The notes under the pieces: generated by a model
Database searches by the model: none
What the model saw: only the letters and a program-made list of their open reading frames with translations
Told to the model about the DNA's origin: nothing
Program-made: the position numbers and the translations under genes
Shown: positions 611 to 27,205 of the stretch, one piece after another
How positions within the stretch are numbered: position 1 is the first letter of the stretch
How the letters are laid out: every line of letters starts with the position of its first letter
Origin: Leptospiria bacterium
Lineage (GTDB): Bacteria > Spirochaetota > Leptospiria > Turneriellales > CBDBES01
Assembly: GCA_965262015.1 (NCBI GenBank)
Contig: OZ253494.1
Coordinates: 1,402,720 to 1,466,719 of the forward strand
Direction of reading: 5' to 3'
DNA length: 64,000 bases

Positions 611-636
611 CACCTTCGTAACCTTGTAATGGAAAG

Positions 637-1036
637 GTGAGCAGTTTCTCTTTGTAAAGAGCCTACACTATGTTATTGATCATAGTACAAAATCTAAATA
701 TATTTTTTTGTTTTAATGTCAGATAATATGTTTTTCTGTCAAAATATCTTCTTAGTTGTTTGATAGAGTTTTCTACTTGTCCCTTTTGCCAAGGTGAACC
801 TGGGCTACATGCATATATAGGAGTATGTAGCATTCCCTGTAAATTTCTAAATGATGTATTTTCAGTGTCCCTGTCACAGATGATAACCTGGATATTATCT
901 ATCTGAGAAAACAACTGTATATGTATCCATTATTCATAATAAATTTTCATTGGTCGTTCCCCTTACTTTTAATACTTTTTAAGAAAAACAGCTTATAAAT
1001 ACCTTAAACTATCCAGCTCTGGACTTGACTTTCCAA
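637..1036 (-). mobile_element. Decayed IS30-family element remnant (copy 1, right end eroded)
   Basis: It contains a transposase C-terminal fragment. The left-end region AAGAAAAACAGCTTATAAATACCTTAAACTATCCAG...GACTTTCC is homologous to the copies at 12151, 40444 and 52454. Confidence 0.7.
663..914 (-). pseudogene. IS30-family transposase C-terminal fragment
   Basis: This 83-aa ORF contains ICDRDTEN...ACSPGSPWQKGQVENSIKQLRRYF, which resembles the IS30 DDE C-terminal signature (P-W-Q-R-G-x-N-E-N...R-x-Y-F-P-K). The N-terminal two-thirds of the protein are missing. Confidence 0.7.
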
Positions 1037-11948: not shown

Positions 11949-12150
11949 ATCCGCCAGCTATCGGCATTTATTTATTTTATTTAACAAAAAATTATATGTA
12001 GTAGATTCTATTTGAATGATGGTGGTTTAATTTAGTTATATTTTTTAAAAATTATATCTCATGAAAGAGAAATACATAGAATCCTTGAATAAGATCAAGA
12101 AGAGTTTACGATATTACAAAGATAATGAGATTCATAAAAAAGCAGGGATT

Positions 12151-12645
12151 GAAGAGCCAGTACCATCTCTGTACAAAATAAACTTGGTTAGCGGTTTTCC
12201 ATTGTAAAGATGGCTTACACATGTTATTAATTATGGTACAAGATCTAAATATATTTTTTTATTTGAACACCTGATCATCTGCCTTTCTGTTAAAATATTT
12301 TTTTAGTTGTTTGATAGAGTTTTTAACCTGCCCTTTTTGTCATGATAAACCCATAGCCAATACATATACAGGAGCATATAGCATTTTCTGTAAATTTATA
12401 AATGATATATTTTCAGTTCCCCTATCACAAATTATCACCCGTATATTTGCCACTCAAGAAAATAAATATTTTCATGTTATATATAAACCTAAAATAAATG
12501 TATATATGAGCTATTTTTCAATAGCTCATATTCTCTAATAAATACTTCTGCATATTTTCATTAGTCATTCTCCTTATTTTTCATCTTTTTAAGAAAAACA
12601 GCTCATGAATACCTTAAACTGTCCAGGGTTGAACTGGCCTTTCAA
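12151..12645 (-). mobile_element. IS30-family remnant (copy 2), internally deleted; forms the left boundary of the array
   Basis: The right-end IR-like GAAGAGCCAGTACCATCTCTGTACAAAATAAACTTGGTTAGC aligns over 42 nt with copy 4 at 52454. It carries a degraded transposase C-terminal region, and the left-end region ends at ...CCAGGGTTGAACTGGCCTTTCAA. Confidence 0.7.
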
Positions 12646-12692
12646 CCAGTTACATAATTTCTTGACTATACACACCTACATCAGATTTATAT

Positions 12693-12727
12693 TTTTCTAA
12701 ATAGGCAGAGCATGCCTATTTAGAAAA
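12693..12727 (+). promoter_or_regulatory. Conserved palindrome/hairpin (15-bp stem, 5-nt loop) ending 8 nt before the start codon of paralog 1
   Basis: The sequence is TTTTCTAAATAGGCA-GAGCA-TGCCTATTTAGAAAA. Copies lie upstream of all four paralogs, and no Shine-Dalgarno is visible between the palindrome and the ATG. Confidence 0.55.
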
Positions 12728-12734
12728 TACAAAT

Positions 12735-14615
12735 ATGAAATACATAAAAAATATGAACACTACGTTAATGAATAGCGTCAATTGGCATCCAAGATGGTCA
12801 TTAGTTATGTGTGTTGGTCTTATGGTATTTATGATCTTTGGCGTATCTCTGTCTACAGGATGTTCTATCACCTTTCCAGGTAGAATAGTCAATCCCCCTC
12901 CCCTCCCTGATATAGATTGCCCTACAGGTATGGCTCGCCTTGCAAATACTTCTAAAAAAACTACAGACACCTGCATGCTTGATGCCGGTGGTGATGGTAT
13001 TCCTAATTCCACGGATACTGATGGCGATGGTATTCCTGATTCCATGGATGTAGATGCTGATGGTGATGGTTTGATAGAGATAAAAACTGCTGAGATGCTA
13101 GATAACATGCGCTATGATTTGGCGGGAACAAGCTATAAGACCTCGGCGACACAAACAACAGGTAATACAGATGGTTGCCCTGCTGTTGGCAGTGGTGGTT
13201 GTAACGGCTACGAACTAACGGCCGACATTGATCTTTTGAGCTTGCTTGATGCCAACGGTAATGGGATGATCGATACGACGATGGAGGGCATTGATAAAAA
13301 TGCCGACGGCGATACTACAGATATCGGTGAGCAAATAACAGTTATTGATACTACTGCAGATACAAGCTGGATGCCTATTGGTGATAATTCGACAAATGAT
13401 GACATAACTCGCTTCACAGGCACTTTTGAGGGCAACAACCATACTATCGCCAACCTTTGGGTGAATATCTCTTCTTCTGCCTCTAACGCCTATGCGGGTT
13501 TGTTTGGCGTGACGGGTGGCACGGTGACCATTCGCAACCTGGAGATTATCGACGGCTCAATTTATTCTTATTCCACGGGTTCTAATTTTAATCCTGTCTC
13601 TGGCGGTCTGGTGGGACTTTCTGCTGCTTCTTTGATGATTATGAATAGTACTTTTAGTGGGTCTGGTGGAGTCTTTTCTTCTGCCGCTGCTAATTCTACT
13701 AATACTCTTTCTCGCTCAGGTGGCATGGTAGGGCAGGCTGATAATACTTTGACGATCATCAAGTGTATTTTTAGTGCATCTGGTGGAGTCTCTTCTTCTT
13801 CTACTAATTCTTCTTCCCGTTCTGATTCTGGTGGTCTAGTGGGTACTTCTTCGTCTTTAACAATAACCAATAGTACTTTTAGTGGGTTAGGTGGGGTTTC
13901 TTCTTCCTCTACCGCTACTACTACTCTTCGTGATTCTCTTGCAGGCGGTATTGTTGGTTTTCCTACTGGTATCTCAACTATCACCAATTCGTATTTTAGT
14001 GGATCTGGTGGAGTCTCTTCTTCTTCTACGACTACCGATTCTTATGTTGGCGGTCTGGTGGGGACTAGTAATGCTTCTTTCATGATCAAAAATAGTTATT
14101 TTTCTGGGTTTGGTGATATCTTTTCTTTTGCTTCTGGTGGGTCGTCTATATCAGGTGGTCTGGTTGCTCACAGTCACCATGGCACTCCTTTAACGATCAT
14201 CAATAGTTATTTTAGTGGATCTGGTAAAGTCTCTTCTTCTACCTCAGGTTCTGTATCTTATTCAGGTGGTCTGGTGGGTCGTTCTACTGCTTCTTTGACG
14301 ATCACAAACAGTTATTGGAATACAGAGACATCTCAAAGTGTGGGAGGCTCTCCCCAAAACCCAAAACGGGCACAGGGTAATGCTGCGATGAACCCATCAG
14401 GCACAACTGGCCTCACCTTAGTGCAACTGCAAGCTATCACTGGCATACACCCATCTGGTCTGCCACATAGTGCCACCGACGACACCAAAGCGTGGGACCT
14501 TGGCACCGATATGCAATTACCTGCGGTTAAGCTGTGTATCCCCACGATCACAAGCGGTGTCGCTAACTGGGCGATATGTGCATCATACGGCACTCTGCTT
14601 GCCGGGCAAAGATAG
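12735..14615 (+). CDS. Surface lipoprotein paralog 1: TSP3-like Ca-binding module plus 7 GLUG-type repeats
   Basis: This 626-aa protein has a signal peptide ending LSTGC (Cys43). It carries one DCPTGMARLANTSKKTTDTC loop and the DTDGDGIPDSMDVDADGDG motif, then a core FTGTFEGNNHTIANLW...GLFG. Seven GG(L/M/I)VG...I.NS.FSG.G repeats follow, and the C-terminus is NSYWNTET...WDLGT..QLPAVKLC...LLAGQR. Confidence 0.85.
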   Translation: MKYIKNMNTTLMNSVNWHPRWSLVMCVGLMVFMIFGVSLSTGCSITFPGRIVNPPPLPDIDCPTGMARLANTSKKTTDTCMLDAGGDGIPNSTDTDGDGIPDSMDVDADGDGLIEIKTAEMLDNMRYDLAGTSYKTSATQTTGNTDGCPAVGSGGCNGYELTADIDLLSLLDANGNGMIDTTMEGIDKNADGDTTDIGEQITVIDTTADTSWMPIGDNSTNDDITRFTGTFEGNNHTIANLWVNISSSASNAYAGLFGVTGGTVTIRNLEIIDGSIYSYSTGSNFNPVSGGLVGLSAASLMIMNSTFSGSGGVFSSAAANSTNTLSRSGGMVGQADNTLTIIKCIFSASGGVSSSSTNSSSRSDSGGLVGTSSSLTITNSTFSGLGGVSSSSTATTTLRDSLAGGIVGFPTGISTITNSYFSGSGGVSSSSTTTDSYVGGLVGTSNASFMIKNSYFSGFGDIFSFASGGSSISGGLVAHSHHGTPLTIINSYFSGSGKVSSSTSGSVSYSGGLVGRSTASLTITNSYWNTETSQSVGGSPQNPKRAQGNAAMNPSGTTGLTLVQLQAITGIHPSGLPHSATDDTKAWDLGTDMQLPAVKLCIPTITSGVANWAICASYGTLLAGQR

Positions 14616-14700
14616 ACGACTGCCATCCAGTGATGCTCTACTCGCTGGGCGAAGATAAGCATTACCGACAATAGTACTGAGGATAAAGTAACCAAAGGGC

Positions 14701-15066
14701 TTGCTAGGATTAAAAGAAACTGGTGTTTCAGCACCCACGACAAGTTATGGATTCGGCACTGCAACTGGAGAAATGGATGGTGGATATGGTACCTCCATTC
14801 CATCAAGCATAGGTAGTGCAGGAACTGCAACGGAGCGTGCTGCTAAGTTGACGTCAAGCGACGTTGATGTATCATCGTGGAATGATGTTAGTCAAAACAC
14901 CAAAGGTGCTTGGAACTTCGGTACCCTTATGCAAATCCCTGCCCTTAAATACGCCGACTATGACGGTACTGGTACTATATTCTATTGCAACAGTGTTATG
15001 TCTACACCTACAACTGGAATTCCTATTCCTAACTGTGGTGAATTCATCCCTGGACAGGCTAGGTAG
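14701..15066 (+). CDS. Hypothetical 121-aa ORF homologous to the C-terminal domain of the lipoprotein paralogs (possible domain relic)
   Basis: It has a TTG start. Its C-terminus TKGAWNFGTLMQIPALKYADYDGTG..FYC...IPNCGEFIPGQAR parallels TKAWDLGTASQLPAVKLC...CASYGALLAGQR. An identical copy lies at 23702-24067. Confidence 0.35.
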   Translation: MLGLKETGVSAPTTSYGFGTATGEMDGGYGTSIPSSIGSAGTATERAAKLTSSDVDVSSWNDVSQNTKGAWNFGTLMQIPALKYADYDGTGTIFYCNSVMSTPTTGIPIPNCGEFIPGQAR

Positions 15067-15130
15067 AAGGTGGTGAAAGAGATCATATCACCTTCTGCTT
15101 AAGAATATATCTGCAGGGCTTTAAGGAATT

Positions 15131-15175
15131 GAGCGTTAGAGCTGAACAGAGCCAAAACAATAGACCTGGCTTAGC
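15131..15175 (-). repeat. Extra solo copy of the IS right-end IR-like sequence
   Basis: GAGCGTTAGAGCTGAACAGAGCCAAAACAATAGACCTGGCTTAGC resembles the IR region CTGGACAGAATAGACTTGGTTAGC of copy 4. It recurs at about 21261 and about 24140. Confidence 0.5.
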
Positions 15176-15215
15176 TATTATTTGCAAAATTTAGATTAGA
15201 TTTTTATTTTCTTTT

Positions 15216-15245
15216 AACGGTGTTGGTTCTTGTACCAACACCGTT
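15216..15245. repeat. Perfect 12-bp-stem hairpin (AACGGTGTTGGT-TCTTGT-ACCAACACCGTT) inside the inter-IR segment
   Basis: I read it directly, and copies lie at 21346-21375 and 24217-24246. It is absent from the unit 2/3 junction. Confidence 0.8.
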
Positions 15246-15271
15246 ATTCATGTTGATTGATCCTGTAAAAT

Positions 15272-15505
15272 CGAGAAATTAGCATTTGCTCTGGACAGAA
15301 ATAGGCCTGGCTTAGCCTAGTATCTTTATCTCATAAAAGACAGCAGATTTTGATAGATTTATTTTATGAGCTATTTTTCAATAGCTCATATTCTCTAATA
15401 AATACTTCTGCATATTTTTATTAGTTATTCTCCTTATTTTTCATCTTTTTAAGAAAAACAGCTCATGAATACCTTAAACCGTCCAGGGTTGAACTAGCCT
15501 TTCAA
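15272..15505 (-). mobile_element. MITE-like IS30 derivative at the unit 1/2 boundary
   Basis: The right-end IR-like ...CTCTGGACAGAAATAGGCCTGGCTTAGCC is joined directly to the IS 5' region (GAGCTATTTTTCAATAGCTC...AAGAAAAACAGCTCATGAATACCTTAAACCGTCCAGGGTTGAACTAGCCTTTCAA). There is no transposase ORF. Confidence 0.6.
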
Positions 15506-15550
15506 CCAGTTACACAATTCTTGACCATACACATCTACTTAGGTGCATGG

Positions 15551-15583
15551 CTTCTAAATAGGCAGAGTATGCCTATTTAGAAG
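15551..15583 (+). promoter_or_regulatory. Conserved leader palindrome (14-bp stem) upstream of paralog 2
   Basis: The sequence is CTTCTAAATAGGCA-GAGTA-TGCCTATTTAGAAG. The outer stem pair C:G replaces the T:A of units 1 and 3, so both arms changed. Confidence 0.55.
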
Positions 15584-15591
15584 ATACAAAT

Positions 15592-18111
15592 ATGAAATAC
15601 ATAAAAAATATGAACACTACGTTAATGAATAGCGTCAATTGGCATGCAAGATGGTCATTAGTTATATGTGTTGGTCTTATGGTATTTATGATCTTTGGCG
15701 TATCTTTGTCTACAGGATGTTCTATCACCTTTCCAGGTAGAATAGTCAATCCCCCTCCCCTCCCCGATGTAGATTGCCCTACAGGTACGGCTCGCCTTGC
15801 AAATACTTCTAAAAAAACTACAGACACCTGCATGCTTGATGCTGATTCCGATGCTCCTGATGTAGATTGCCCTACGGGTATGGCTCGCCTTGCAAATGCT
15901 TCTAAAAAAACTACAGACACCTGCATGCCCGATACTGATGGTGACGGTACTCCTGATGTAACTTGTCTTATGGGCACCATTCGTTTGGCAGGTACTTCTA
16001 TAAATACTATGGACACTTGTGTCCCCGATGATGACGGCGATGGTATTCCTGATTCCATGGATGTAGATGCTGATGGTGATGGTTTGATAGAGATAAAAAC
16101 TGCTGAGATGCTAGATAACATGCGCTATGATTTGGCGGGAACAAGCTATAAGACTAAGGCTCAGGACTTAGCGGGTGAAGATGGTAATACAGATGGTTGC
16201 CCTGCTGTTGTTAGTAGCAGTGGAGATTGTAACGGCTACGAACTAACGGCCGACATTGATCTTTTGAGCTTGCTTGATGCAAATGGCAATGGGATGATTG
16301 ATACGACGATGGAGGGCATTGATAAAAATACTGACGGCGATACAACAGATGCAGGTGAGCAAATAACAGTTATTGATATAGGTACGGGCAAAGACAAAAG
16401 TTGGGTGCCCATTGGTACTACTGGCACGGAGAACAGCTTCACAGGCACTTTTGAAGGCAATAACCACACCATCGCTAACCTTTGGGTGAATATCTCTTCT
16501 TCTAGCTCTACTGTTTATGCGGGTTTGTTTGGTCTAGCGGGTGGCCCGAGCATTCGTAATGTGGGGGTTATTTCAGGTTCAATTCACGCTTTTTCTTCTG
16601 ATTCTTCTTCTGAGTCTTATTCAGGCGGTTTGGTGGGTTATTCTGGGAGTACTTTGAGTATTACGAATAGTTATTTTAGCGGTGGGGGTGGAGTTTCTTC
16701 TAATTCTTATTCTAATTCAGGCGGTTTGGTGGGTTATTCTGGGAGTACTTTGACAATAACGAATAGTTATTTTAGCGGTGCGGGTGGAGTTTCTTCTGCT
16801 TCTTCTTCAGGCGGTTTGGTGGGTTATTCTGGGAGTACTTTGAGTATTACGAATAGTTATTTTAGTGGTGTGGGTGGAGTTTCTGATTCTTCTGCTTTTC
16901 GTTCTTCTTCAGGCGGTTTGGTGGGTTATTCTGTGGGGAGTACTTTGAGTATTACGAATAGTTATTTTAGCGGTGGGGGTGGAGTTTCTTCTTCTACTTC
17001 TTCTAGTTCCTCTGAGTCTTATTCAGGCGGTTTGGTGGGTTATTCTAGAAGTACTTTGATAATAACGAATAGTTATTTTAGCGGTGGGGGTGGAGTTTCT
17101 ACTTCTTCTGCTTTTCGTTCTTCTTCAGGCGGTTTGGTGGGTTATTCTGAGAGTACTTTGAGTATTATGAATAGTTATTTTAGCGGTGTGGGTGGAGTTT
17201 CTTCTGATTCTTCTTCTTCTAATTCAGGCGGTTTGGTGGGTTATTCTGGGAGTACTTTGAGTATTACGAATAGTTATTTTAGCGGTGCGGGTGGAGTTTC
17301 TTCTGCTTCTTCTTCAGGTGGTTTGGTGGGTTATTCTGGGAGTACTTTGAGTATTACGAATAGTTATTTTAGTGGTGTGGGTGGAGTTTCTGATTCTTCT
17401 GCTTTTCGTTCTTCTTCAGGCGGTTTGGTGGGTTATTCTGGGAGTACTTTGAGTATTACGAATAGTTATTTTAGCGGTGGGGATGGAGTTTCTTCTAATT
17501 CTACTACTTCTTCTTCTAATTCAGGCGGTTTGGTGGGTTATTCTCAGAGTGGGAGTACTTTGATGATTATGAATAGTTATTTTAGCGGTGGGGGTGGAGT
17601 TTCTTCTAATTCTACTACTTCTTCTTCTAATTCAGGCGGTTTGGTGGGTTATTCTGTGGGGAGTACTTTGAGTATTACGAATAGTTATTTTAGCGGTGGG
17701 GGTGGAGTTTCTTCTAATTCTACTACTTCTTCTTCTAATTCAGGCGGTTTGGTGGGTTATTCTGTGAGTACTGTGAGTACTTTGACGATTACGAATAGTT
17801 ATTGGGACAACAGTGTGCCTCAAAGTGTAGATGGCTCTCCCCAAAGTCTGCGGGTCGTGGGTAGCTCTTCGACGAATCCAATGGGTGCAACTGGTCTCAC
17901 CTTAACGCAACTACAAGCTATCACTGTTAGCACTACAAGTGCCCCATCCCCATCTGGTTTGCCACATAGTGCCACTGATAATACCAAATCTTGGGACCTA
18001 GGCACCGCAAGCCAGCTACCTGCGGTTAAGTTATGCGTTAGCCCCACGGTTAGCAGCACCAACGTTGTAACATGTGCGTCATACGGTGCTCTGCTTGCCG
18101 GGCAACGATAG
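15592..18111 (+). CDS. Surface lipoprotein paralog 2: three Cys-loop/TSP3-like modules plus 12 GLUG-type repeats
   Basis: This 839-aa protein has the same signal peptide and LSTGC as paralog 1. It carries three (V/I)DCPTG.ARLAN.SKKTTDTC-type modules and 12 copies of GGLVGYS.STL.I.NSYFSG.GGVS with Ser-rich spacers. Confidence 0.85.
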   Translation: MKYIKNMNTTLMNSVNWHARWSLVICVGLMVFMIFGVSLSTGCSITFPGRIVNPPPLPDVDCPTGTARLANTSKKTTDTCMLDADSDAPDVDCPTGMARLANASKKTTDTCMPDTDGDGTPDVTCLMGTIRLAGTSINTMDTCVPDDDGDGIPDSMDVDADGDGLIEIKTAEMLDNMRYDLAGTSYKTKAQDLAGEDGNTDGCPAVVSSSGDCNGYELTADIDLLSLLDANGNGMIDTTMEGIDKNTDGDTTDAGEQITVIDIGTGKDKSWVPIGTTGTENSFTGTFEGNNHTIANLWVNISSSSSTVYAGLFGLAGGPSIRNVGVISGSIHAFSSDSSSESYSGGLVGYSGSTLSITNSYFSGGGGVSSNSYSNSGGLVGYSGSTLTITNSYFSGAGGVSSASSSGGLVGYSGSTLSITNSYFSGVGGVSDSSAFRSSSGGLVGYSVGSTLSITNSYFSGGGGVSSSTSSSSSESYSGGLVGYSRSTLIITNSYFSGGGGVSTSSAFRSSSGGLVGYSESTLSIMNSYFSGVGGVSSDSSSSNSGGLVGYSGSTLSITNSYFSGAGGVSSASSSGGLVGYSGSTLSITNSYFSGVGGVSDSSAFRSSSGGLVGYSGSTLSITNSYFSGGDGVSSNSTTSSSNSGGLVGYSQSGSTLMIMNSYFSGGGGVSSNSTTSSSNSGGLVGYSVGSTLSITNSYFSGGGGVSSNSTTSSSNSGGLVGYSVSTVSTLTITNSYWDNSVPQSVDGSPQSLRVVGSSSTNPMGATGLTLTQLQAITVSTTSAPSPSGLPHSATDNTKSWDLGTASQLPAVKLCVSPTVSSTNVVTCASYGALLAGQR
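16621..17805 (+). repeat. Intragenic near-identical 90-114-nt tandem repeats (12 units) with a 507-nt higher-order duplication
   Basis: The unit TCAGGCGGTTTGGTGGGTTATTCTGGGAGTACTTTGAGTATTACGAATAGTTATTTTAGCGGTG.GGGTGGAGTTTCT recurs. Repeats 2-3 (from 16717) recur almost base-for-base as repeats 7-8 (from 17224). Confidence 0.9.
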
Positions 18112-18125
18112 ACGACTGCCATCCA

Positions 18126-18229
18126 GTGATGCTCTACTCACTGGGCAAAGATAAGCATTGCCGACCGATAGTACTGAGTGATGCTCTATTCACTGGGCGA
18201 AGATAAGCACTGCCGACCGATAGTACTGA
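18126..18229 (+). repeat. 2 x 52-nt tandem copy of a stop-containing tail motif derived from the gene 3' terminus
   Basis: GTGATGCTCTAYTCACTGGGCRAAGATAAGCAYTGCCGACCGATAGTACTGA occurs twice here. Single copies lie in units 1, 3 and 4. It encodes SDAL(L/F)TG(Q/R)R*, compare the gene end YGALLAGQR*. Confidence 0.8.
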
Positions 18230-18407
18230 GGATAAAGTAACCAAAGGTGCTTGGAATTTTGGCACCCTTATGCAAATCCCTGCCCTTAAATACGCCGACT
18301 ATGACGGTACTGGTACTATATTCTATTGCAACAGTGTTATGTCTACACCTACAACTGGAATTCCTATTCCTAACTGTGGTGAATTCATCCCTGGACAGGG
18401 TCGGTAG
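18207..18407 (+). pseudogene. Truncated relic of the downstream C-terminal-domain module (unit 2)
   Basis: It reads ...STEDKVTKGAWNFGTLMQIPALKYADYDGTGTIFYCNSVMSTPTTGIPIPNCGEFIPGQGR*. It lacks the 208 nt present in units 1 and 4 between the direct repeats ACCAAAGG, and it has no usable start codon. Confidence 0.6.
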
Positions 18408-18470
18408 AAGGTGGTGAAAGAGATCATCACCTCCTGCTTAAGAATATATCTGCAGGGCTTTAAGAAATTA

Positions 18471-18702
18471 AGCATTAGAGCTGAACAGAGCCAAAACAAT
18501 AGACCTGGCTTAGCCTAGTATCTTTATCTCATACAGGACAGTAGATTTTGATAGATTGATTTTTTGAGCTATTTTTCAATAGCTCATATTCTCTAATAAA
18601 TACTTCTGTATATTTTGATAAGCTGTTCTTCCTGAATCTTATTATTTAAGAAAAACAGCTCATGAATACCTTAAAACATCCAGGGTTGAACTTGCCTTTC
18701 AA
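18471..18702 (-). mobile_element. MITE-like IS30 derivative at the unit 2/3 boundary (single IR copy, hairpin segment deleted)
   Basis: AGCATTAGAGCTGAACAGAGCCAAAACAATAGACCTGGCTTAGCCTAG is followed directly by the IS 5' region, ending ...CCAGGGTTGAACTTGCCTTTCAA. Confidence 0.6.
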
Positions 18703-18749
18703 CCAGTTACATAATTTCTTGACTATACACACCTACATCAGATTTATAT

Positions 18750-18784
18750 TTTTCTAAATAGGCAGAGCATGCCTATTTAGAAAA
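18750..18784 (+). promoter_or_regulatory. Conserved leader palindrome (15-bp stem) upstream of paralog 3
   Basis: The sequence TTTTCTAAATAGGCA-GAGCA-TGCCTATTTAGAAAA is identical to the unit 1 copy. Confidence 0.55.
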
Positions 18785-18791
18785 TACAAAT

Positions 18792-20936
18792 ATGAAATAC
18801 ATAAAAAATAAGAATACTACGTTAATGAATAGCGTCAATTGGCATCCAAGATGGTCATTAGTTATGTGTGTTGGTCTTATGGTATTTATGATCTTTGGCG
18901 TATCTTTGTCTACAGGATGTTCTATCACCTTTCCAGGTAGAATAGTCAATCCCCCTCCCCTCCCTGATATAGATTGCCCTACGGGTATGGCTCGCCTTGC
19001 AAATACTTCTAAAAAAATTACAGACACCTGCACGCTTGATGCCGATTCCATTAATACGGATGATGACGGCGATGGTATTCCTGATTCCATGGATGTAGAT
19101 GCTGATGGTGATGGTTTGATAGAGATAAAAAATGCCGTGATGCTAGATAACATGCGCCATGATCTATCGGGTACCAGCTATAAGACTAAGGCTCAGGACT
19201 TAGCGGGTGAAGATGGTAATACAGATGGTTGCCCTGCTGTTGTTAGTGGCAGTGGTGGTTGTAACGGCTACGAACTAACGGCCGATATTGATCTTTTGAG
19301 TTTGCTTGATGCCAACGGTAATGGGATGATCGATACGACGATGGAGGGCATTGATAAAAATGCTGACGGCGATACGACAGATGCAGGTGAGCAAATAACA
19401 GTTATTGATATAGGTACGGGAAAAGATAAAAGTTGGGTGCCCATTGGTACCGTTGGCACGGGGAAAAGCTTCACAGGCACTTTTGAAGGCAATAACCACA
19501 CCATCGCTAACCTTTGGATGAATAGCTCTAATGTCTATACGGGCTTATTTGGTGTAACGGGTGGCACGGTGGCCATTCGCAATGTGGGGGTTATTTCAGG
19601 TTTAATTCACGTTTCTTCTTCTAATTCTGGTTCAGGCGGTTTGGTGGGTTATTCTGGGAGTGGGAGTACTTTGACAATAACGAATAGTTATTTTAGTGGT
19701 GCGGGTGGAGTTTCTTCTCCTTATTCTGCTTCTTATTCAGGCGGTTTGGTGGGTTATTCTGGGAGTGGGAGTACTTTGACAATAACGAATAGTTATTTTA
19801 GTGGTGCGGGTGGAGTTTTTTCTGCTTCTGGTTCAGGCGGTTTGGTGGGTTATTCTGGGAGTACTTTGACAATAACGAATAGTTATTTTAGCGGTGGGGG
19901 TGGAGTTTCTTCTTCTAATTCTTCAGGCGGTTTGGTGGGTGTTTCTGAGAGTACTTTGACAATAACAAATAGTTATTTTAGCGGTGGGGGTGGAGTTTCT
20001 TCTGTTTCTTCTTCTTCTAATTCTTCAGGCGGTTTGGTGGGTTATTCTGGGAGTATGAGTACTTTGATAATAACGAATAGTTATTTTAGCGGTGGGGGTG
20101 GAGTTTCTTCCTCCTCTTCTTCTTATTCTTATTCAGGCGGTTTGGTGGGTTTTTCTGAGAGTACTTTGAGTATTACGAATAGTTATTTTAGCGGTGGGGG
20201 TGGAGTTTCTTCCTCCTCTTCTTCTTATTCTTATTCAGGCGGTTTGGTGGGTTTTTCTGGGAGTACTTTGAGTATTACGAATAGTTATTTTAGCGGTGGG
20301 GGTGGAGTTTCTTCCTCCTCTTCTTCTTCTGTTGCTACTGCTTCTTCTTCTTCAGGCGGTTTGGTGGGTTTTTCTGGGGGTACTTTGAGTATTGCGAATA
20401 GTTATTTTAGTGGTGAGGGTGGAGTTTCTACTACTACTTCTTCTTCTTCTTCTTATTCAGGCGGTTTGGTGGGTTATTCTGGGAGTACTTTGAGTATTAC
20501 GAATAGTTATTTTAGCGGTGGGGGTGGAGTTTCTTCCTCCTCTTCTTCTTCTTCTCATTCAGGCGGTTTGGTGGGTTCTTCTCAGAGTGGGAGTACTTTG
20601 ATGATTATGAATAGTTATTGGAACACAGACGCCCCTCAAAAAATAACTAATGGAATGACTGATCAAAGCCCAAAGCTGGCAGTGGGTAACTCTTCGACGA
20701 ATCGAATGGGTACAACTGGTCTCACCTTAACGCAACTACAAGCTATCACTGTTAGTACTACAAGTGCCCCATCCCCATCTGGTTTGCCACATAGTGCCAC
20801 TGATAATACCAAAGCTTGGGACCTAGGCACCGCAAGCCAGCTACCTGCGGTTAAGTTATGCGTTAGCCCCACGGTTAGCAGCACCAACGTTGTAACATGT
20901 GCATCATACGGTGCTCTGCTTGCCGGGCAACGATAG
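18792..20936 (+). CDS. Surface lipoprotein paralog 3: one Cys-loop/TSP3-like module plus 10 GLUG-type repeats
   Basis: This 714-aa protein has the same signal peptide and LSTGC. It carries 10 copies of GGLVG(Y/F/V/S)S..STL.I.NSYFSG.GGVS. Its C-terminal 90 aa are nearly identical to paralog 2. Confidence 0.85.
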   Translation: MKYIKNKNTTLMNSVNWHPRWSLVMCVGLMVFMIFGVSLSTGCSITFPGRIVNPPPLPDIDCPTGMARLANTSKKITDTCTLDADSINTDDDGDGIPDSMDVDADGDGLIEIKNAVMLDNMRHDLSGTSYKTKAQDLAGEDGNTDGCPAVVSGSGGCNGYELTADIDLLSLLDANGNGMIDTTMEGIDKNADGDTTDAGEQITVIDIGTGKDKSWVPIGTVGTGKSFTGTFEGNNHTIANLWMNSSNVYTGLFGVTGGTVAIRNVGVISGLIHVSSSNSGSGGLVGYSGSGSTLTITNSYFSGAGGVSSPYSASYSGGLVGYSGSGSTLTITNSYFSGAGGVFSASGSGGLVGYSGSTLTITNSYFSGGGGVSSSNSSGGLVGVSESTLTITNSYFSGGGGVSSVSSSSNSSGGLVGYSGSMSTLIITNSYFSGGGGVSSSSSSYSYSGGLVGFSESTLSITNSYFSGGGGVSSSSSSYSYSGGLVGFSGSTLSITNSYFSGGGGVSSSSSSSVATASSSSGGLVGFSGGTLSIANSYFSGEGGVSTTTSSSSSYSGGLVGYSGSTLSITNSYFSGGGGVSSSSSSSSHSGGLVGSSQSGSTLMIMNSYWNTDAPQKITNGMTDQSPKLAVGNSSTNRMGTTGLTLTQLQAITVSTTSAPSPSGLPHSATDNTKAWDLGTASQLPAVKLCVSPTVSSTNVVTCASYGALLAGQR
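19632..20622 (+). repeat. Intragenic near-identical tandem repeats (10 units) with (TCT)n-rich spacers
   Basis: The repeat consensus is the same as in paralog 2. Spacers contain TCTTCTTCTTCT... runs of variable length. Confidence 0.9.
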
Positions 20937-21000
20937 ACGACTGCCATCCAGTGATGCTCTACTCACTGGGCAAAGATAAGCATTGCCGACCGATAGTACT

Positions 21001-21197
21001 GAGGATAAAGTAACCAAAGGGCTTGGAGCTTTGTCACTGGTAAAATCCCTGCCCTTAAATACGCCGACTATGCAGACTATGACGGTACTGGTACTACATT
21101 CTATTGCAACAGTGTTATGTCTACACCTGCAACGGGAATGGGAATGCCCATGCCCATTCCTAACTGTGGTGAATTTATCCCTGGACAGGGTCGGTAG
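21001..21197 (+). pseudogene. Frameshifted relic of the downstream C-terminal-domain module (unit 3)
   Basis: The homologous frame reads ...IPALKYADYADYDGTGTTFYCNSVMSTPATGMGMPMPIPNCGEFIPGQGR*. A 4-nt length difference upstream breaks the frame, so the track ORF 20983-21207 is in a different frame. Confidence 0.55.
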
Positions 21198-21401
21198 AAG
21201 GTGGTGAAAGAGATCATCACCTTCTGCTTAAGAATATATCTGCAGGGCTTTAAGGAATTGAGCGTTAGAGCTGAACAGAGCCAAGAAAGGTAGACCTGGC
21301 TTAGCTATTATTTGCAAAATTTAGATTAGATTTTTATTTTCTTTTAACGGTGTTGGTTCTTGCACCAACACCGTTGTTCATGTTGATTGATCTTGTAAAA
21401 T

Positions 21402-21634
21402 CAAGAAATTAGCATTGGCTCTGGACAGAAATAGACCTGGCCTAACCTCGTATCTTTATCTCATAAAAGACAGCAGATTTTGGTATATGTATATATGAGC
21501 TATTTTTCAATAGCTCATATTCTCTAATAAATACTTCTGCATATTTTTATTAGTTATTCTCCTTATTTTTCATCTTTTTAAGAAAAACAGCTCATGAATA
21601 CCTTAAACCGTCCAGGGTTGAACTAGCCTTTCAA
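21402..21634 (-). mobile_element. MITE-like IS30 derivative at the unit 3/4 boundary
   Basis: It has the same architecture as 15272-15505, and an extra IR copy lies at about 21261-21305. Confidence 0.6.
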
Positions 21635-21679
21635 CCAGTTACACAATTCTTGACCATACACATCTACTTAGGTGCATGG

Positions 21680-21712
21680 CTTCTAAATAGGCAGAGTATG
21701 CCTATTTAGAAG
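21680..21712 (+). promoter_or_regulatory. Conserved leader palindrome (14-bp stem) upstream of paralog 4
   Basis: The sequence CTTCTAAATAGGCA-GAGTA-TGCCTATTTAGAAG is identical to the unit 2 copy. Confidence 0.55.
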
Positions 21713-21720
21713 ATACAAAT

Positions 21721-23616
21721 ATGAAATACATAAAAAATATGAACACTACGTTAATGAATAGCGTCAATTGGCATCCAAGATGGTCATTAGTTATGTGTGT
21801 TGGTCTTATGGTATTTATGATCTTTGGCGTATCTTTGTCTACAGGATGTTCTATCACCTTTCCAGGTAGAATAGTCAATCCCCCTCCCCTCCCCGATGTA
21901 GATTGCCCTACAGGTACGGCTCGCCTTGCAAATACTTCTAAAAAAACTACAGACACCTGCATGCTTGATGCCGATTCCGATGCTCCTGATGTAGATTGCC
22001 CTACGGGTATGGCTCGCCTTGCAAATGCTTCTAAAAAAACTACAGACACCTGCATGCCCGATACTGATGGTGACGGTACTCCTGATGTAACTTGTCTTAT
22101 GGGCACCATTCGTTTGGCAGGTACTTCTATAAATACTATGGACACTTGTGTCCCCGATGATGACGGCGATGGTATTCCTGATTCCATGGATGTAGATGCT
22201 GATGGTGATGGTTTGATAGAGATAAAAACTGCTGAGATGCTAGATAACATGCGCTATGATTTGGCGGGAACAAGCTATAAGACCTCGGCGACACAAACAA
22301 CAGGTAATACAGATGGTTGCCCTGCTGTTGGCAGTGGTGGTTGTAACGGCTACGAACTAACGGCCGATATTGATCTTTTGAGTTTGCTTGATGCCAACGG
22401 TAATGGGATGATCGATACGACGATGGAGGGCATTGATAAAAATGCTGACGGCGATACGACAGATGCAGGTGAGCAAATAACAGTTATTGATACTACTGCA
22501 GATACAAGCTGGATGCCTATTGGTGATAATTCGACAAATGATGACATAACTCGCTTCACAGGCACTTTTGAGGGCAACAACCACACCATCGCCAACCTCT
22601 GGGTGAATATTTCTTCTTCGGATAACGCCCATGCGGGTTTATTTGGCGTAACGGGTGGAACAACGGTGACCATTCGCAATGTGAGTGTCATTTCAGGCTC
22701 AATTCATTCTTCTGCTACTTCTGCTTCTGGTCAATCTAATGCAGGCGGTTTGGTGGGACTTTCTACTGCTTCTTTAATAATAAGTGATTGTACTTTTTCT
22801 GGATCGCTTGGGGTCTCTACTTCTAATAATGCTGGCGGTCTAGTGGGTGCGTCTGGTGCTCCTTTAATAATAAGCAATTGTACTTTTTTGGGGTCGGGTG
22901 ATATCTCTTCTTCTAATCAAAGTGGTTCTTCTGCTGGTGGTCTGGTGGGGTGGATTAGTTCTTCTTTGACAATCACTAATTCCATTTTTTCTGGGTCGGG
23001 TGATATCTCTGCTTCTGCTTCTAATGGTTCTACTCATTCTGGCGGTCTGGTGGGGTGGATGAGTTCTTCTTTGACAATCACTAATTGCATTTTTTCTGGG
23101 TCGGGTGATATCTCTGCTTCTTCTCCTTCTGCTTCTAATAGTTCTATTGTTGGCGGTTTGACTGGTCACGCTTACTCTACCTCTCCCGTTTCTTGGACAA
23201 TTACTAATTGCAGTTTCTTTGGCTCTGGTCAAATCTCTTCTATGGGTACTAATAGTTTTACTGTTGGCGGTTTGATTGGAACTACTAACAGTTCTTTGAC
23301 GATAAGAAACAGTTATTGGAACAAAGATGCCATCCAAAGAGTGGGTGGCTCTAACCAAAGCCCCAAGAGGGCGAAGGGTGACGCTTCTTCAGATCCATCT
23401 GGCACGATTGGCCTCACCTTAGTAGAACTGCAAGCTATTACTGGCATACACCCATCTGGTTTGCCACATAGTGCCACCGACAGCACCAAAGCTTGGGACC
23501 TAGGCACTGCAAGCCAGCTACCCGCTATTAAGCTGTGTATTCCCACCATCACAAGCGGTGTCACCGATTGGACGATGTGTGCGTCATACGGTGCTCTGCT
23601 TGCTGGGCAACGATAG
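21721..23616 (+). CDS. Surface lipoprotein paralog 4 (chimeric): three Cys-loop/TSP3-like modules plus 6 divergent GLUG-type repeats
   Basis: This 631-aa protein has a 5' part of about 470-560 nt almost identical to paralog 2. Its central region is of the paralog 1 type with a paralog 3 patch. It carries six GGL(V/T/I)G...I(S/T)N(C/S).F.GSG.IS repeats. Confidence 0.85.
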   Translation: MKYIKNMNTTLMNSVNWHPRWSLVMCVGLMVFMIFGVSLSTGCSITFPGRIVNPPPLPDVDCPTGTARLANTSKKTTDTCMLDADSDAPDVDCPTGMARLANASKKTTDTCMPDTDGDGTPDVTCLMGTIRLAGTSINTMDTCVPDDDGDGIPDSMDVDADGDGLIEIKTAEMLDNMRYDLAGTSYKTSATQTTGNTDGCPAVGSGGCNGYELTADIDLLSLLDANGNGMIDTTMEGIDKNADGDTTDAGEQITVIDTTADTSWMPIGDNSTNDDITRFTGTFEGNNHTIANLWVNISSSDNAHAGLFGVTGGTTVTIRNVSVISGSIHSSATSASGQSNAGGLVGLSTASLIISDCTFSGSLGVSTSNNAGGLVGASGAPLIISNCTFLGSGDISSSNQSGSSAGGLVGWISSSLTITNSIFSGSGDISASASNGSTHSGGLVGWMSSSLTITNCIFSGSGDISASSPSASNSSIVGGLTGHAYSTSPVSWTITNCSFFGSGQISSMGTNSFTVGGLIGTTNSSLTIRNSYWNKDAIQRVGGSNQSPKRAKGDASSDPSGTIGLTLVELQAITGIHPSGLPHSATDSTKAWDLGTASQLPAIKLCIPTITSGVTDWTMCASYGALLAGQR

Positions 23617-23701
23617 ACGACTGCCATCCAGTGATGCTCTACTCGCTGGGCGAAGATAAGCATTACCGACAATAGTACTGAGGATAAAGTAACCAAAGGG
23701 C

Positions 23702-24067
23702 TTGCTAGGATTAAAAGAAACTGGTGTTTCAGCACCCACGACAAGTTATGGATTCGGCACTGCAACTGGAGAAATGGATGGTGGATATGGTACCTCCATT
23801 CCATCAAGCATAGGTAGTGCAGGAACTGCAACGGAGCGTGCTGCTAAGTTGACGTCAAGCGACGTTGATGTATCATCGTGGAATGATGTTAGTCAAAACA
23901 CCAAAGGTGCTTGGAACTTCGGTACCCTTATGCAAATCCCTGCCCTTAAATACGCCGACTATGACGGTACTGGTACTATATTCTATTGCAACAGTGTTAT
24001 GTCTACACCTACAACTGGAATTCCTATTCCTAACTGTGGTGAATTCATCCCTGGACAGGCTAGGTAG
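23702..24067 (+). CDS. Hypothetical 121-aa C-terminal-domain-like ORF (identical copy of 14701-15066)
   Basis: The protein sequence in the track is identical to that of 14701-15066. Confidence 0.35.
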   Translation: MLGLKETGVSAPTTSYGFGTATGEMDGGYGTSIPSSIGSAGTATERAAKLTSSDVDVSSWNDVSQNTKGAWNFGTLMQIPALKYADYDGTGTIFYCNSVMSTPTTGIPIPNCGEFIPGQAR

Positions 24068-24272
24068 AAGGTGGTGAAAGAGATCATATCACCTTCTGCT
24101 TAAGAATATATCTGCAGGGCTTTAAGGAATTGAGCGTTAGAGCTGAACAGAGCCAAAACAATAGACCTGGCTTAGCTATTATTTGCAAAATTTAGATTAG
24201 ATTTTTATTTTCTTTTAACGGTGTTGGTTCTTGTACCAACACCGTTGTTCATGTTGATTGATCCTGTAAAAT

Positions 24273-24506
24273 CGAGAAATTAGCATTTGCTCTGGACAGA
24301 AATAGGCCTGGCTTAGCCTAGTATCTTTATCTCATACAGGACAGTAGATTTTGATAGATTGATTTTTTGAGCTATTTTTCTATAGCTTATATGTTCTAAT
24401 AAATCCTTCTGTATATTTTTATTGGCTGTTCTACTTATTTTTCATCTTTTTAAGAAAAACAGCTCATGAATACCTTAAACCGTCCAGGGTTGAACTGGCC
24501 TTTCCA
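24273..24506 (-). mobile_element. MITE-like IS30 derivative closing the array
   Basis: It has the same architecture as the other boundary elements but is more diverged (GAGCTATTTTTCTATAGCTTAT). It ends ...CCAGGGTTGAACTGGCCTTTCCA. No leader palindrome follows it. Confidence 0.55.
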
Positions 24507-24587
24507 GATTTTTCAATAGTTTCTGTACAATATAGATAAAAAAATCTTGTCAAAATGCTAAAATATTTAAATTGATTACTAATCTTG

Positions 24588-25508
24588 ATGTATAAAGCTG
24601 TTGTATTTACGGGACAAGGTTCACAACGCCCTGGTATGGGTAAGGATTTCTATGAAAACTTCCCAAGGGCAAAGGAGATTTTTGATCAAGCATCTGAAAA
24701 TCTTGGAATTGATATTCCTGAGTTATGTTTTACAGAGAATACCCAAGTTAATCTTACTGAATATACCCAACCAAGTATTCTTACAGTAGAAATCGCCATA
24801 TATGAAGTTTTAAAACAACAATATAATTTTACGCCTGAATGGTTTGCCGGGCATAGCCTTGGTGAATATGGAGCTCTTTATGCAGCTGGTGTGCTTCCAT
24901 TCCCAGAAGTCATTTCTATTGTGCGTGAAAGAGGCAGACTCATGCAAAATGCTGTCCCAAAGGGTAAAGGTGCCATGTCTGCTTTAATTCGTGATAATAT
25001 TACAGAATTAGATTACGAGTCTGTTGTTTTGTCGACAGGTGCCGAGATCGCTAATTACAATTCTACTAATCAAGTTGTCATAAGTGGTTCTATGGAGTCT
25101 GTTACTCAGGCAAATGAGTTAATTCATTCACAATTTTCTGATGTAAGAGTTGTACCCCTTAATGTCAGTGCTCCCTTCCATTCAAGCTTAATGCAACCTA
25201 TTGAGGCAGAATTTAGTTCTTATCTTGAAGGGTTATCATCTACGTTTAACCTAGAAAAAAGTTGTAAGGTATTATCAAACTATACGGGAAAATTACATCA
25301 GCCTGAACTTATGATAAAAAATCTGGTTGCACAAATTAGTGGAAGTATCAGATGGATGCAAAACATGGAATATCTGGCAAAACATGCACAAGATATCTAT
25401 GAAATAGGGCCCAATCGTATTTTGACTGGTTTTTTTAACAGTATAGATGTTAAGGTTAGGGCCATTATTAACGTACGGGCTTTACGTAAAATATTTGAGG
25501 AGAACTAA
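24588..25508 (+). CDS. fabD: Malonyl-CoA:ACP transacylase
   Basis: The motifs FTGQGSQRPGMG, GHSLGEYGAL and APFHS are present. The ATG at 24588 lies one codon inside the track TTG start. Confidence 0.85.
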   Translation: MYKAVVFTGQGSQRPGMGKDFYENFPRAKEIFDQASENLGIDIPELCFTENTQVNLTEYTQPSILTVEIAIYEVLKQQYNFTPEWFAGHSLGEYGALYAAGVLPFPEVISIVRERGRLMQNAVPKGKGAMSALIRDNITELDYESVVLSTGAEIANYNSTNQVVISGSMESVTQANELIHSQFSDVRVVPLNVSAPFHSSLMQPIEAEFSSYLEGLSSTFNLEKSCKVLSNYTGKLHQPELMIKNLVAQISGSIRWMQNMEYLAKHAQDIYEIGPNRILTGFFNSIDVKVRAIINVRALRKIFEEN

Positions 25509-26443
25509 TGAGTTTTAAAAATAAATGGGCTTTAATTTTAGGTGGTTCTAGTGGGTTTGGTTTGCAAACAGCTAAAAAACTTAGTAGCCAGGGCATGAAT
25601 ATTTGTGTTGTACATCGTGATCGACGTGGTGCAATGGAAAGAATTAATAAAGAATTTCAAGAGATTCGTGATAATAAGGTAAAACTTATCTCCTATAATG
25701 AAAATGCTCTAGAGAAAGAAGTACAAGAAAAGATCTTAGATGATTTTACCAAACAAGTAGGGAAAGGTCAAATAGGTTTGCTCATGCACTCGATAGCATT
25801 AGGAAATTTAAAATTACTAGCCCCTAGAAAACAAACTATTTCACCTAATCAAATGGCCGTAGGAAAGCTAGCCGAAGCATTACAAATCTCTGAAAAACAA
25901 TTACAGACACAAATCAATACTCTTTTTGAACAAGGTCTGTATTCTTTCCATTCTTTATCAGAAAGTCCAGTGTATAATGATGAGTTATTGCTAGGTGATG
26001 AAGATATTGCAAATACTGCCTATGCTATGGGAACTAGTTTGATCACTTGGGTTCAAGAACTTTTTACAAGAGAATTATTTGCAGATTATGTACAAGTCGT
26101 TGGTTTAACTAGCGAAGGTAATGAAGTAGCATGGTTAGGATATGCAGCTGTTAGTATTGCAAAATGTGCATTAGAAGCTGCCTCACGAAGTATTGCAAGA
26201 GAGTTTGCTCCTTATGGCATTCGTTCAAATATTATTCAGGCAGGTGTTACTTACACACCCGCCTTACAATTTATACCAGGTAGCTCTCATATTGTAGCCA
26301 AAGCTTTTCTTTCTCAACCTGGCGGGCGTCTTACTCAACCATCTGATGTGGCCAATGTAATATCTTTGTTGTGTACACAAGAAGCCTACTGGATTAATGG
26401 TAGTTTAATTAAGGTGGACTGTGGAGAAAGTATTTCCAAGTAA
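25508..26443 (+). CDS. SDR-family enoyl-ACP reductase-like protein (FabI/FabL-like with a ~60-aa insertion)
   Basis: It has an N-terminal ILGGSSGFG nucleotide-binding loop. The Y-x6-K spacing in YAAVSIAKCALEAASRSIAREFAPYGIRSNIIQAG matches the enoyl reductase pattern rather than the classic Y-x3-K. The start overlaps the fabD stop (TAATG) and follows a GAGGAG SD. Confidence 0.55.
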   Translation: MSFKNKWALILGGSSGFGLQTAKKLSSQGMNICVVHRDRRGAMERINKEFQEIRDNKVKLISYNENALEKEVQEKILDDFTKQVGKGQIGLLMHSIALGNLKLLAPRKQTISPNQMAVGKLAEALQISEKQLQTQINTLFEQGLYSFHSLSESPVYNDELLLGDEDIANTAYAMGTSLITWVQELFTRELFADYVQVVGLTSEGNEVAWLGYAAVSIAKCALEAASRSIAREFAPYGIRSNIIQAGVTYTPALQFIPGSSHIVAKAFLSQPGGRLTQPSDVANVISLLCTQEAYWINGSLIKVDCGESISK

Positions 26444-26452
26444 GGGGGAGAT

Positions 26453-27187: not shown

Positions 27188-27205
27188 GGAGATATATGCA
27201 TAGAC

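Follow-up and report, generated by a model that had tools for sequence, protein, structure and literature searches.

A tandem array of four genes for predicted GLUG lipoproteins

The 64-kb stretch of DNA analysed here (the window), part of contig OZ253494.1 of a Leptospiria bacterium, contains a tandem array of four genes encoding predicted lipoproteins with GLUG repeats. The array is probably a four-copy amplification of one lipoprotein family, flanked by pieces of an insertion sequence (IS) and evolving by gene conversion. The four open reading frames (ORFs) are all intact, lie head-to-tail on the + strand and encode proteins of 626, 839, 714 and 631 aa, an arrangement given in a preliminary description of the locus and confirmed by the ORF calls and a landmark search.

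12735-14615, + strand: gene 1, 626 aa; lipobox LSTGC, 1 Cys-loop, core, 7 diverged GLUG coils, C-terminal cap
15592-18111, + strand: gene 2, 839 aa; 3 Cys-loops, 12 nearly identical GLUG coils
18792-20936, + strand: gene 3, 714 aa; 1 Cys-loop, 10 nearly identical GLUG coils
21721-23616, + strand: gene 4, 631 aa; 3 Cys-loops, 6 diverged GLUG coils

The repeating unit can be followed with the landmark GAGCTATTTTTCAATAGCTC, which is found exactly at 12508, 15368, 18566 and 21497 and with two mismatches at 24369, and which gave no matches in shuffled sequences. From these positions the units measure 2860, 3198, 2931 and 2872 bp. Three of the lengths are those originally reported; the first landmark, then placed at 12499, and the first unit, then given as 2869 bp, are corrected here. 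To the left of the array lie fliK-flgD-flgE on the - strand and to the right, on the + strand, the genes for a FabD-like protein, two short-chain dehydrogenase/reductases (SDRs), a ketosynthase and a phosphopantetheinyl transferase (PPTase), in agreement with the flagellar hook operon and the fatty acid synthase (FAS)-like operon recognised at the outset. The G+C content is about 32% window-wide and 42-46% over 12-24 kb.

As the region is repetitive, and an independent assembly of the same organism was not found, it might be supposed that an assembler had wrongly expanded one gene, or at any rate fewer than four, into the present array. A scan of JGI metagenomes for the organism gave nothing above 30%-identity matches. 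Such an artefact is nevertheless very improbable: the units all differ from one another, in sequence (70-95% identity), in length and in their numbers of Cys-loops and coils, all four ORFs are intact and related metagenome-assembled genomes (MAGs), assembled separately, have similar arrays.

IS30-family fragments at the unit boundaries

What recurs in each unit is just the terminal 137-140 bp of a decayed IS30-family element, present in five copies for the four genes.

12507-12646, - strand: IS terminal piece copy 1, identified by blastn and alignment; direct repeat bounding the units
15367-15506, - strand: IS terminal piece copy 2, 97% identity to copy 1
18565-18703, - strand: IS terminal piece copy 3, 88% identity to copy 1
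21496-21635, - strand: IS terminal piece copy 4, 97% identity to copy 1
24368-24504, - strand: IS terminal piece copy 5, closing the array, 90.5% identity over 137 bp

The homology of copy 5 ends about 3 bp before the outer end of the IS, and beyond it comes the unique sequence that precedes the FabD-like gene. To have n genes and n+1 direct IS repeats is the pattern characteristically left by unequal homologous recombination between a flanking pair of repeats.

At the left edge of the array a longer remnant of the element is visible, delimited by tblastn and by comparison of its ends.

12148-12646, - strand: internally deleted, non-autonomous IS30-family remnant of about 500 bp with both terminal inverted repeats

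The inverted repeats of this remnant match at 20 of 27 positions (12148-12174 against the reverse complement of 12620-12646). Inside the remnant, at 12169-12444 on the - strand, is a pseudogene for the C-terminal part of a transposase, interrupted by two stop codons and found at this edge only, while units 2-4 carry one IS end only. The conceptual peptide from the spacer to the left of gene 1 reads ...DRGTEN...QKGQVKNSIKQLKKYF...NNMCKPSLQWKTANQVY. When the 92-aa translation, with its two stops replaced by W and E, was compared with plasmids by tblastn, IS30 family transposases were matched in 356 records (best E=3e-8, 33% identity over 96% of the query), so the remnant is that of an IS30-type DDE transposase, though a pseudogene. 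A Pfam search of six-frame translations of the first spacer gave no transposase domain, and the assignment to IS30 rests on the comparison with plasmids. The view that each unit is bounded by an IS30-derived fragment holds as far as the bounding goes, but the coding remnant occurs once and not four times, and the units start with the terminal ~137-140 bp only.

No intact transposase was found within the 64-kb window, nor any intact autonomous IS30 element with both inverted repeats; the copies in the window are all internally deleted remnants of 400-640 bp. At least three further decayed copies of the same element are present, at 636-1033 (+ strand), 40458-41052 (- strand) and 52453-52691 together with 53853-53901 (+ strand), and these dispersed remnants adjoin unrelated genes (bactofilin, a formyltransferase and exbB/exbD). 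The scattered copies suggest a past proliferation of the IS followed by decay, as in host-restricted genomes.

The proteins are predicted to be tethered beta-helices

All four proteins carry the sequence MIFGVSLSTGC, with the lipobox LSTGC and Cys43 when counted from the first ATG. The lipobox pattern (PROSITE PS51257-type) follows an uncharged hydrophobic stretch and has its cysteine within about 35 residues of the start; here it is at position 43, 37 or 32 from the first, second or third ATG, and the start codon is ambiguous. The signal peptide is followed by Cys-loops, numbering 1, 3, 1 and 3 in genes 1-4, by two to three DxDxDG motifs per protein and by 7, 12, 10 and 6 coils of the type GGLVG...I.NSYFSG, the coil consensus being common to all four proteins. 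The coil counts, the LSTGC motif with Cys43, the conserved core and the conserved C-terminus are all as initially described. The proteins had also been taken for GLUG/TSP3 mosaics, and of this the GLUG part was borne out by Pfam. The GLUG model (PF07581, cut-off 20.5 bits) scores 39 and 28 bits for genes 1 and 2, above the cut-off, and 19.8 and 18.6 bits for genes 3 and 4, slightly below it. The best match to TSP_3 (PF02412), in gene 1 only, fell short of significance (E=0.4, 10.9 bits; cut-off 25). A precomputed PF02412 match exists for one distant homologue, P0106. The NCBIfam models gave noise only (BamM and Csf2, far under their cut-offs).

The product of gene 1 was modelled with AlphaFold2 from an alignment of 73 family sequences, giving a mean predicted local distance difference test (pLDDT) score of 82 and a predicted template modelling (pTM) score of 0.80. 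In the model residues 1-83, comprising the signal peptide, the Pro-rich linker and the Cys-loop, are disordered, residues 105-560 form a single continuous beta-helix and the C-terminal cap that follows is of lower confidence. The best matches of the model in Foldseek are to BACOVA_03286 (3n6z, E=1.7e-4) and to the helix domains of IgA1 proteases from Streptococcus and Gemella (6xja, 7uvk). A family profile compared with the PDB sequences similarly picks out IgA1 proteases at E about 4e-9. The model, the Foldseek matches and the profile matches all agree with the right-handed beta-helix of the solved GLUG domains. No M26 catalytic domain with its HExxH motif was found in the array proteins, which gave no peptidase match and whose PDB matches are confined to the helix region, and neither Pfam nor NCBIfam detected any other catalytic family in them. 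Taken with the Pfam and structural matches, this leads us to regard the proteins as tethered, rod-like GLUG beta-helices with a length set by the number of coils. From lipobox and model, the array products are predicted to be surface-exposed lipoproteins.

The right-handed beta-helix is also the fold of pectate lyases and tailspikes, and enzymes of this kind do appear in the Foldseek list. The proteins could on this account be enzymes that attack glycans of a host or of algae, such as polysaccharide lyases or hydrolases, or else S-layer-like coat subunits, with the array serving to raise their dosage, for which tandem amplifications are commonly selected. We think this improbable. The enzyme matches are non-significant (E>0.6, TM<0.2) and the significant ones are to non-catalytic GLUG domains; with no catalytic family matched, the coils are moreover rich in Gly and Ser, with no conserved acidic or basic catalytic cluster to be seen.

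Sequence exchange between the copies

The units were aligned at their 5' ends, from the landmark to GLFG, with positions given in the coordinates of unit 1. All 17 sites that group units 1 and 3 against 2 and 4 lie 5' of 13013, and all 39 that group units 1 and 4 against 2 and 3 lie 3' of 13142. The breakpoint between 13013 and 13142 is highly significant (maximum chi-square 56, permutation p<5e-5). A 156-nt insertion with two extra Cys-loops follows the former pattern and the long 3' tail the latter. The breakpoint falls in the DNA encoding DGDGIPDSMDVDADGDGLIEIK...YKT, which is the DGDGLIEI junction of tether and helix and the most conserved junction in the family. At this same junction homologues from other organisms have wholly different N-terminal regions, for example FN3 domains.

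In sliding comparisons patchy tracts of at least 98% identity stand out from a background of 70-85%. Units 2 and 4 reach this level over the first ~700 nt, units 1 and 4 over ~350 nt of the core and again over the last ~650 nt (their tails being 99.2% identical over 752 nt), units 1 and 3 over 250 nt of the leader and units 2 and 3 over 150 nt of 3' coding sequence. The breakpoint and the near-identical tracts clearly bear out the proposal that sequence has been exchanged between the copies. The first 60 codons have a synonymous divergence (dS) of 0-0.05, which rises to 0.1-0.4 in the core and reaches as much as 0.74 at the C-terminus. The ratio of non-synonymous to synonymous divergence (dN/dS) is 0.1-0.4 in nearly all comparisons of the alignable parts, with one pair at 0.74, and all four copies are therefore under constraint through purifying selection.

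The coils have a history of their own. In genes 2 and 3 almost every coil has a partner in its own gene to which it is 93-99% identical, and gene 2 contains a duplication of a three-coil block; the coils of genes 1 and 4 have 70-76% identity to their own-gene neighbours. To judge from these comparisons, the coils were recently expanded inside genes 2 and 3.

The helix body of gene 1 is 80% identical to P0004 and 72.5% identical to P0005, two proteins from another metagenome sample (ERZ26693861; loci L080 and L081) that lie on contigs of one or two other organisms. In the one comparison made, MetH of the organism of P0005 is 59.5% identical to that of the window. P0004 and P0005, both from spirochaetes, have FN3-type N-termini joined at the same DGDGLIEI junction. 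The body types therefore predate the array or have passed from one species to another, while the 5' ends within the array have been homogenised locally, and the pattern suggests swapping of bodies, or their transfer, between co-resident species.

These identities could also mean that the gene moves horizontally as an active composite transposon or mobile cassette that is spreading through the genome, with IS ends beside each gene and remnants of the same IS scattered in the window. It is hard to give this much credence, however, when there is no intact transposase in the window and the coding remnant contains stop codons. The flanking pieces are, besides, direct rather than inverted, with one IS end each.

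The G+C content at third codon positions (GC3) is 0.32-0.36 in the array genes against 0.16-0.27 in the flanks, rising to 0.39-0.49 in the core and C-terminus. Raised GC3 was considered as a mark of horizontal transfer; family genes exceed their neighbours in all four genomes examined (the source genome, L001, L080 and L081), and the similar excess in three related organisms makes it a property of the family that is not decisive. GC-biased gene conversion may lie behind the excess, as may a bias in codons or amino acids, or a foreign origin.

Tails and leaders of the units

Downstream of each gene is a remnant of a further coding sequence.

14701-15066, + strand: tail remnant after gene 1, 121 codons; 58% identity to residues 565-684 of P0116, E=1e-33
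18240-18404, + strand: shortened tail remnant after gene 2; tblastn 98% over 55 aa
21021-21194, + strand: shortened, more diverged tail remnant after gene 3; tblastn 73% over 59 aa
23702-24067, + strand: tail remnant after gene 4, 121-codon ORF; the tail 23617-24368 is 99.2% identical to 14616-15367

P0116 is a paralogue in the source genome that belongs to another GLUG subfamily. The tail ORF has neither a signal peptide nor an ATG start and is therefore a pseudogene remnant carried in each unit. The reiterated 3' tail of the preliminary description does recur, if shortened after genes 2 and 3, and can now be identified as what is left of the C-terminus of a different paralogue.

Three of the tails also contain a terminator-like hairpin with a 12-13-bp stem (AACGGTGTTGGT/ACCAACACCGTT).

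15215-15246, + strand: terminator-like hairpin after gene 1
21345-21376, + strand: terminator-like hairpin after gene 3
24216-24247, + strand: terminator-like hairpin after gene 4

The hairpin is part of an element of ~140 bp flanked by 15-bp direct repeats (ATAGxCCTGGCTTAGC), the whole spanning 15161-15362, 21291-21492 and 24162-24363. After gene 2 the element is precisely absent. It could be an insertion resembling a miniature inverted-repeat transposable element (MITE), or the absence could be due to deletion between the direct repeats.

In the leader of each gene there is a perfect palindrome, as had been reported (a stem of 14-15 bp in each unit).

12693-12727, + strand: leader palindrome of gene 1, 15+15 nt, 5-nt loop, perfect
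15551-15583, + strand: leader palindrome of gene 2, 14+14 nt, 5-nt loop, perfect; outer pair C:G in place of T:A
18750-18784, + strand: leader palindrome of gene 3, 15+15 nt, 5-nt loop, perfect
21680-21712, + strand: leader palindrome of gene 4, 14+14 nt, 5-nt loop, perfect

In all four cases its 3' end is 8 nt upstream of the ATG. As RNA it would fold into a hairpin of about -19 to -20 kcal/mol (z about -6). Within the sequence available the palindrome is restricted to the four leaders, the types of which differ within it by a single compensatory pair, T:A to C:G. The arms are adjacent, with no promoter between them. A candidate hybrid promoter, TTGAAC-N18-CATAAT, is present at 12629-12658 with its -35 box inside the inverted repeat of the IS.

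Evidence bearing on a switch

The array had been put forward as a candidate surface-variation system. If it were a programmed locus for antigenic or phase variation, one or a few copies would be expressed, the tails or neighbouring copies would act as donors and the palindrome or the IS end would act as the switch. A leader and signal peptide that are conserved beside a repeat body that varies, as in the vsp and vlp genes of mycoplasmas, would fit such a locus, as would the recent conversion tracts, the pseudogene tail beside each gene and the perfect conserved palindrome at every gene start. Other features do not fit. Rather than an expression site with promoterless or truncated donors, there are four complete genes with the same leader, start and signal peptide, and with full-length copies of identical leader architecture there is no asymmetry of expression site and silent cassette. 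The tails come from a different subfamily and are, by their sequences, too diverged from the resident C-termini to act as conversion donors, the alignable parts of the genes are under purifying selection and the palindrome does not flank a promoter.

A switching device was also sought directly. No recombinase, invertase, Xer-type recombinase or reverse transcriptase was present among the ORFs of at least 120 aa scanned with Pfam (a few of which were unmatched, smaller ORFs being outside the scan); those with matches have housekeeping functions only. No frame-shifting simple repeat was found, the sole simple repeats being in-frame (TTC)n runs encoding serine. Within the scanned ORFs and the repeat scan there was accordingly no invertible promoter with a recombinase, no shifting repeat and no diversity-generating retroelement. 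With four complete copies behind the same leader and neither silent cassettes, a switch element nor frame-shifting repeats found in these scans, we do not retain the proposal of a surface-variation system, and a programmed switch at this locus seems unlikely.

Distribution of the family

A search with gene 1 gave at least 779 homologues, many of them together on single contigs (that of the 1.92 Mb source genome and another of 2.13 Mb). The matches listed for the source genome include genes 1, 3 and 4 and two further paralogues, P0017 and P0116. Gene 1 corresponds to the protein database entry P0001, gene 3 to P0007 and gene 4 to P0002, exactly or with a shifted start. The 839-aa product of gene 2 is not among the 120 matches listed, though a high score would be expected, which may be due to a different gene call or to a limit on candidate selection.

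In a scan of genomes the nearest carriers are MAGs named "Leptospiria bacterium" and "Spirochaetota bacterium" and members of the Leptonemataceae. Distant carriers, at 30-45% identity, include Porisulfidus, Porifericomitales, Dehalococcoidia, Binatia, Latescibacterota, Thalassolituus and Teredinibacter, among others. Porisulfidus MAGs of this kind originate from a sponge genome project (PMC12988363). Some of the related spirochaete MAGs have dozens of paralogues of the lipoprotein form per genome. One of them, L001, has an array of four genes with a period of 2.7-2.9 kb, spacers of ~140 bp and a common signal peptide, without the IS piece and without the palindrome, and at L080 three family genes form an array.

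An exhaustive profile search with the 164-position core, counting cluster representatives, found 51,897 at E<=0.001, 15,242 at 1e-10 and 2,323 at 1e-30. Among the top matches the number of modules ranges from 2 to 20, with at least four in most cases, and the proteins are as long as 7,800 aa. In the distant taxa, ORF calling showed the repeated core matches to be modules within giant ORFs of 2,700-6,100 aa and not separate genes. Giant ORFs with 6-12 tandem core+GLUG modules are found at L014, L054, L059, L066 and L071, in MAGs of Porifericomitales, Porisulfidus, Azotimanducaceae, Aldehydirespiratoraceae and Dehalococcoidia. The core+GLUG module is spread across many phyla of marine, largely sponge-associated MAGs, and the domain combination, which was not recognised from described systems at first, is a common one (~15,000 representatives at E<=1e-10). 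The family of predicted lipoproteins itself is probably specific to a lineage of uncultured marine Leptospira-class spirochaetes, and the use of separate tandem lipoprotein genes is a spirochaete habit. Literature searches on GLUG proteins and on sponge spirochaetes turned up no account of the lipoprotein family or of its arrays.

Neighbouring genes

The operon directly 3' of the array (24585-29219) encodes a FabD-like acyltransferase, two SDRs, one of them enoyl-reductase-like, a ketosynthase and the PPTase, and may constitute a small lipid pathway of the FAS or polyketide synthase (PKS) type. At 2846-3811 there is, in this reduced genome, a gene of the NeuB family (sialic, legionaminic or pseudaminic acid synthase-like) that may be relevant to the glycosylation of flagellin or of the surface. 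The FliK of the window has zero relatives at E<=1e-10, and Rfam and tRNA scans of the window were empty.

Origin and significance of the array

Each array protein would consist of a lipoprotein signal peptide, a disordered Pro-rich tether with one to three disulfide Cys-loops and Ca-type DxDxDG motifs, and a rigid right-handed beta-helix. The helix would be made up of the core as a conserved cap, 6-12 GLUG coils and a C-terminal cap, with no catalytic domain, and the likeliest role of such a protein would be in binding or as a coat, displayed at the surface with a reach set by the number of coils. To judge from the anatomy of the locus, the terminal ~140 bp of a dead IS30-family element probably stood in direct orientation on both sides of an ancestral gene, and unequal homologous recombination between these pieces would have given n genes with n+1 IS pieces. 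The copies have since swapped tracts by gene conversion or unequal crossing-over, as the sharp breakpoint at DGDGLIEI...YKT in the alignment shows. Each copy appears to have kept its own leader, conceivably with a hybrid promoter drawing its -35 box from the IS inverted repeat, and the palindrome might act either as a hairpin in the 5' untranslated region or as an operator. Diversity would then arise through ordinary recombination over evolutionary time and not through a dedicated switch.

Several points weigh against parts of this account. The amplification could have started from an illegitimate junction instead of two pre-existing IS pieces. Surface exposure and a binding role are deduced solely from the lipobox and the fold, and the association of the organism with a host from the titles of related MAGs. 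At the leaders, units 2 and 4 have a degenerate -10 box (CACAAT), and the promoter assignment is a suggestion only, because a sigma-70 scan yields fewer promoter-like sites in the region than in shuffled sequences. No Shine-Dalgarno sequence is evident before the array genes and three in-frame ATGs are possible as starts. The one compensatory change in the palindrome is as compatible with a DNA operator as with an RNA hairpin.

A bolder interpretation would see the array as one visible piece of a recombination-driven system of surface diversification in uncultured, probably invertebrate-associated spirochaetes. Cassettes of leader, signal peptide and tether would be kept uniform, bodies drawn partly from co-resident species would be shuffled at DGDGLIEI, and control through the IS end and palindrome would be coordinated or mutually exclusive between the copies. 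We regard this as a doubtful extension. If it were true, the module found across phyla of sponge-associated bacteria would be a general device at the interface with host or phage.

What the locus offers, as an IS-flanked amplification diversified by conversion, is a legible case of the growth of a surface-protein family in an uncultured spirochaete with a reduced genome, with dead IS fragments as the substrate for amplification. The end of the gene carrying the anchor and leader stays uniform, whereas the helix bodies, which go back much further, are recombined at a single conserved junction, and the number of coils, hence the length of the rod, is altered by expansion within genes. The array reveals no new mechanism and is a clear if ordinary case of surface-protein diversification in host-associated bacteria. 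For research on marine invertebrate symbiosis, it draws attention to a very large and essentially unannotated family that is a candidate component of the interface with host or phage.

Comparison with known systems

In repeat family and predicted fold the array proteins are the same as the GLUG domain of the M26 IgA1 proteases (6XJA, 6XJB, 7UVK) and as BACOVA_03286 (3N6Z). With these they share the cap motif Y.L..DIDL...W.PIG..F.G.F.GN.HTI.NL...GLFG and the C-terminal cap. Unlike the IgA1 proteases, however, they have no M26 metalloprotease domain, LPXTG or G5 modules; the helix is instead a stand-alone predicted lipoprotein with a tether of Cys-loop and DxDxDG type and has an EF-hand-like insertion in the cap.

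The vsp genes of Mycoplasma bovis, the vlp genes of M. hyorhinis and the vsa genes of M. pulmonis are clustered lipoprotein paralogues in which the 5' leader and signal peptide are highly conserved, the number of in-frame tandem repeats varies and the copies recombine. They have a defined switch, either a poly-A tract in the promoter or a site-specific invertase, and their repeats are largely unstructured. It is to the vsp and vlp loci that the array is closest in architecture, with its conserved leader and signal peptide and its variable in-frame repeats, but no switch was found in it, there is no common sequence and its repeats are predicted to form a folded beta-helix.

Among spirochaetes, the vlsE/vls and vmp genes of Borrelia and tprK of Treponema pallidum are gene-conversion families with one expression site and promoterless, truncated donor cassettes. 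The array is likewise a spirochaete multigene family of probable surface proteins diversified by gene conversion, although, in contrast to these families, its copies are all complete and equally equipped and there is no relationship to them in sequence or fold.

The organisation of the units was initially thought to be unlike that of described systems, but tandem amplification between flanking IS copies is a well-known mechanism. In the amplification of resistance genes bounded by IS26 or IS1, direct IS repeats bound the units, there are n+1 IS copies and the expansion proceeds by unequal homologous recombination. The array resembles these amplifications in having units bounded by direct IS repeats and n genes with n+1 copies. 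It differs from them in that its repeats are dead fragments of ~140 bp and not whole active IS copies, and in being old enough for the units to have diverged to 70-85% identity and to have been partly re-homogenised.

The giant GLUG proteins of marine and sponge-associated bacteria (L014, L054, L059, L066 and L071) contain the same core+GLUG module, at 30-45% identity, in iterated form. Whereas these proteins fuse their modules in single ORFs, each spirochaete module has a predicted lipoprotein gene to itself.

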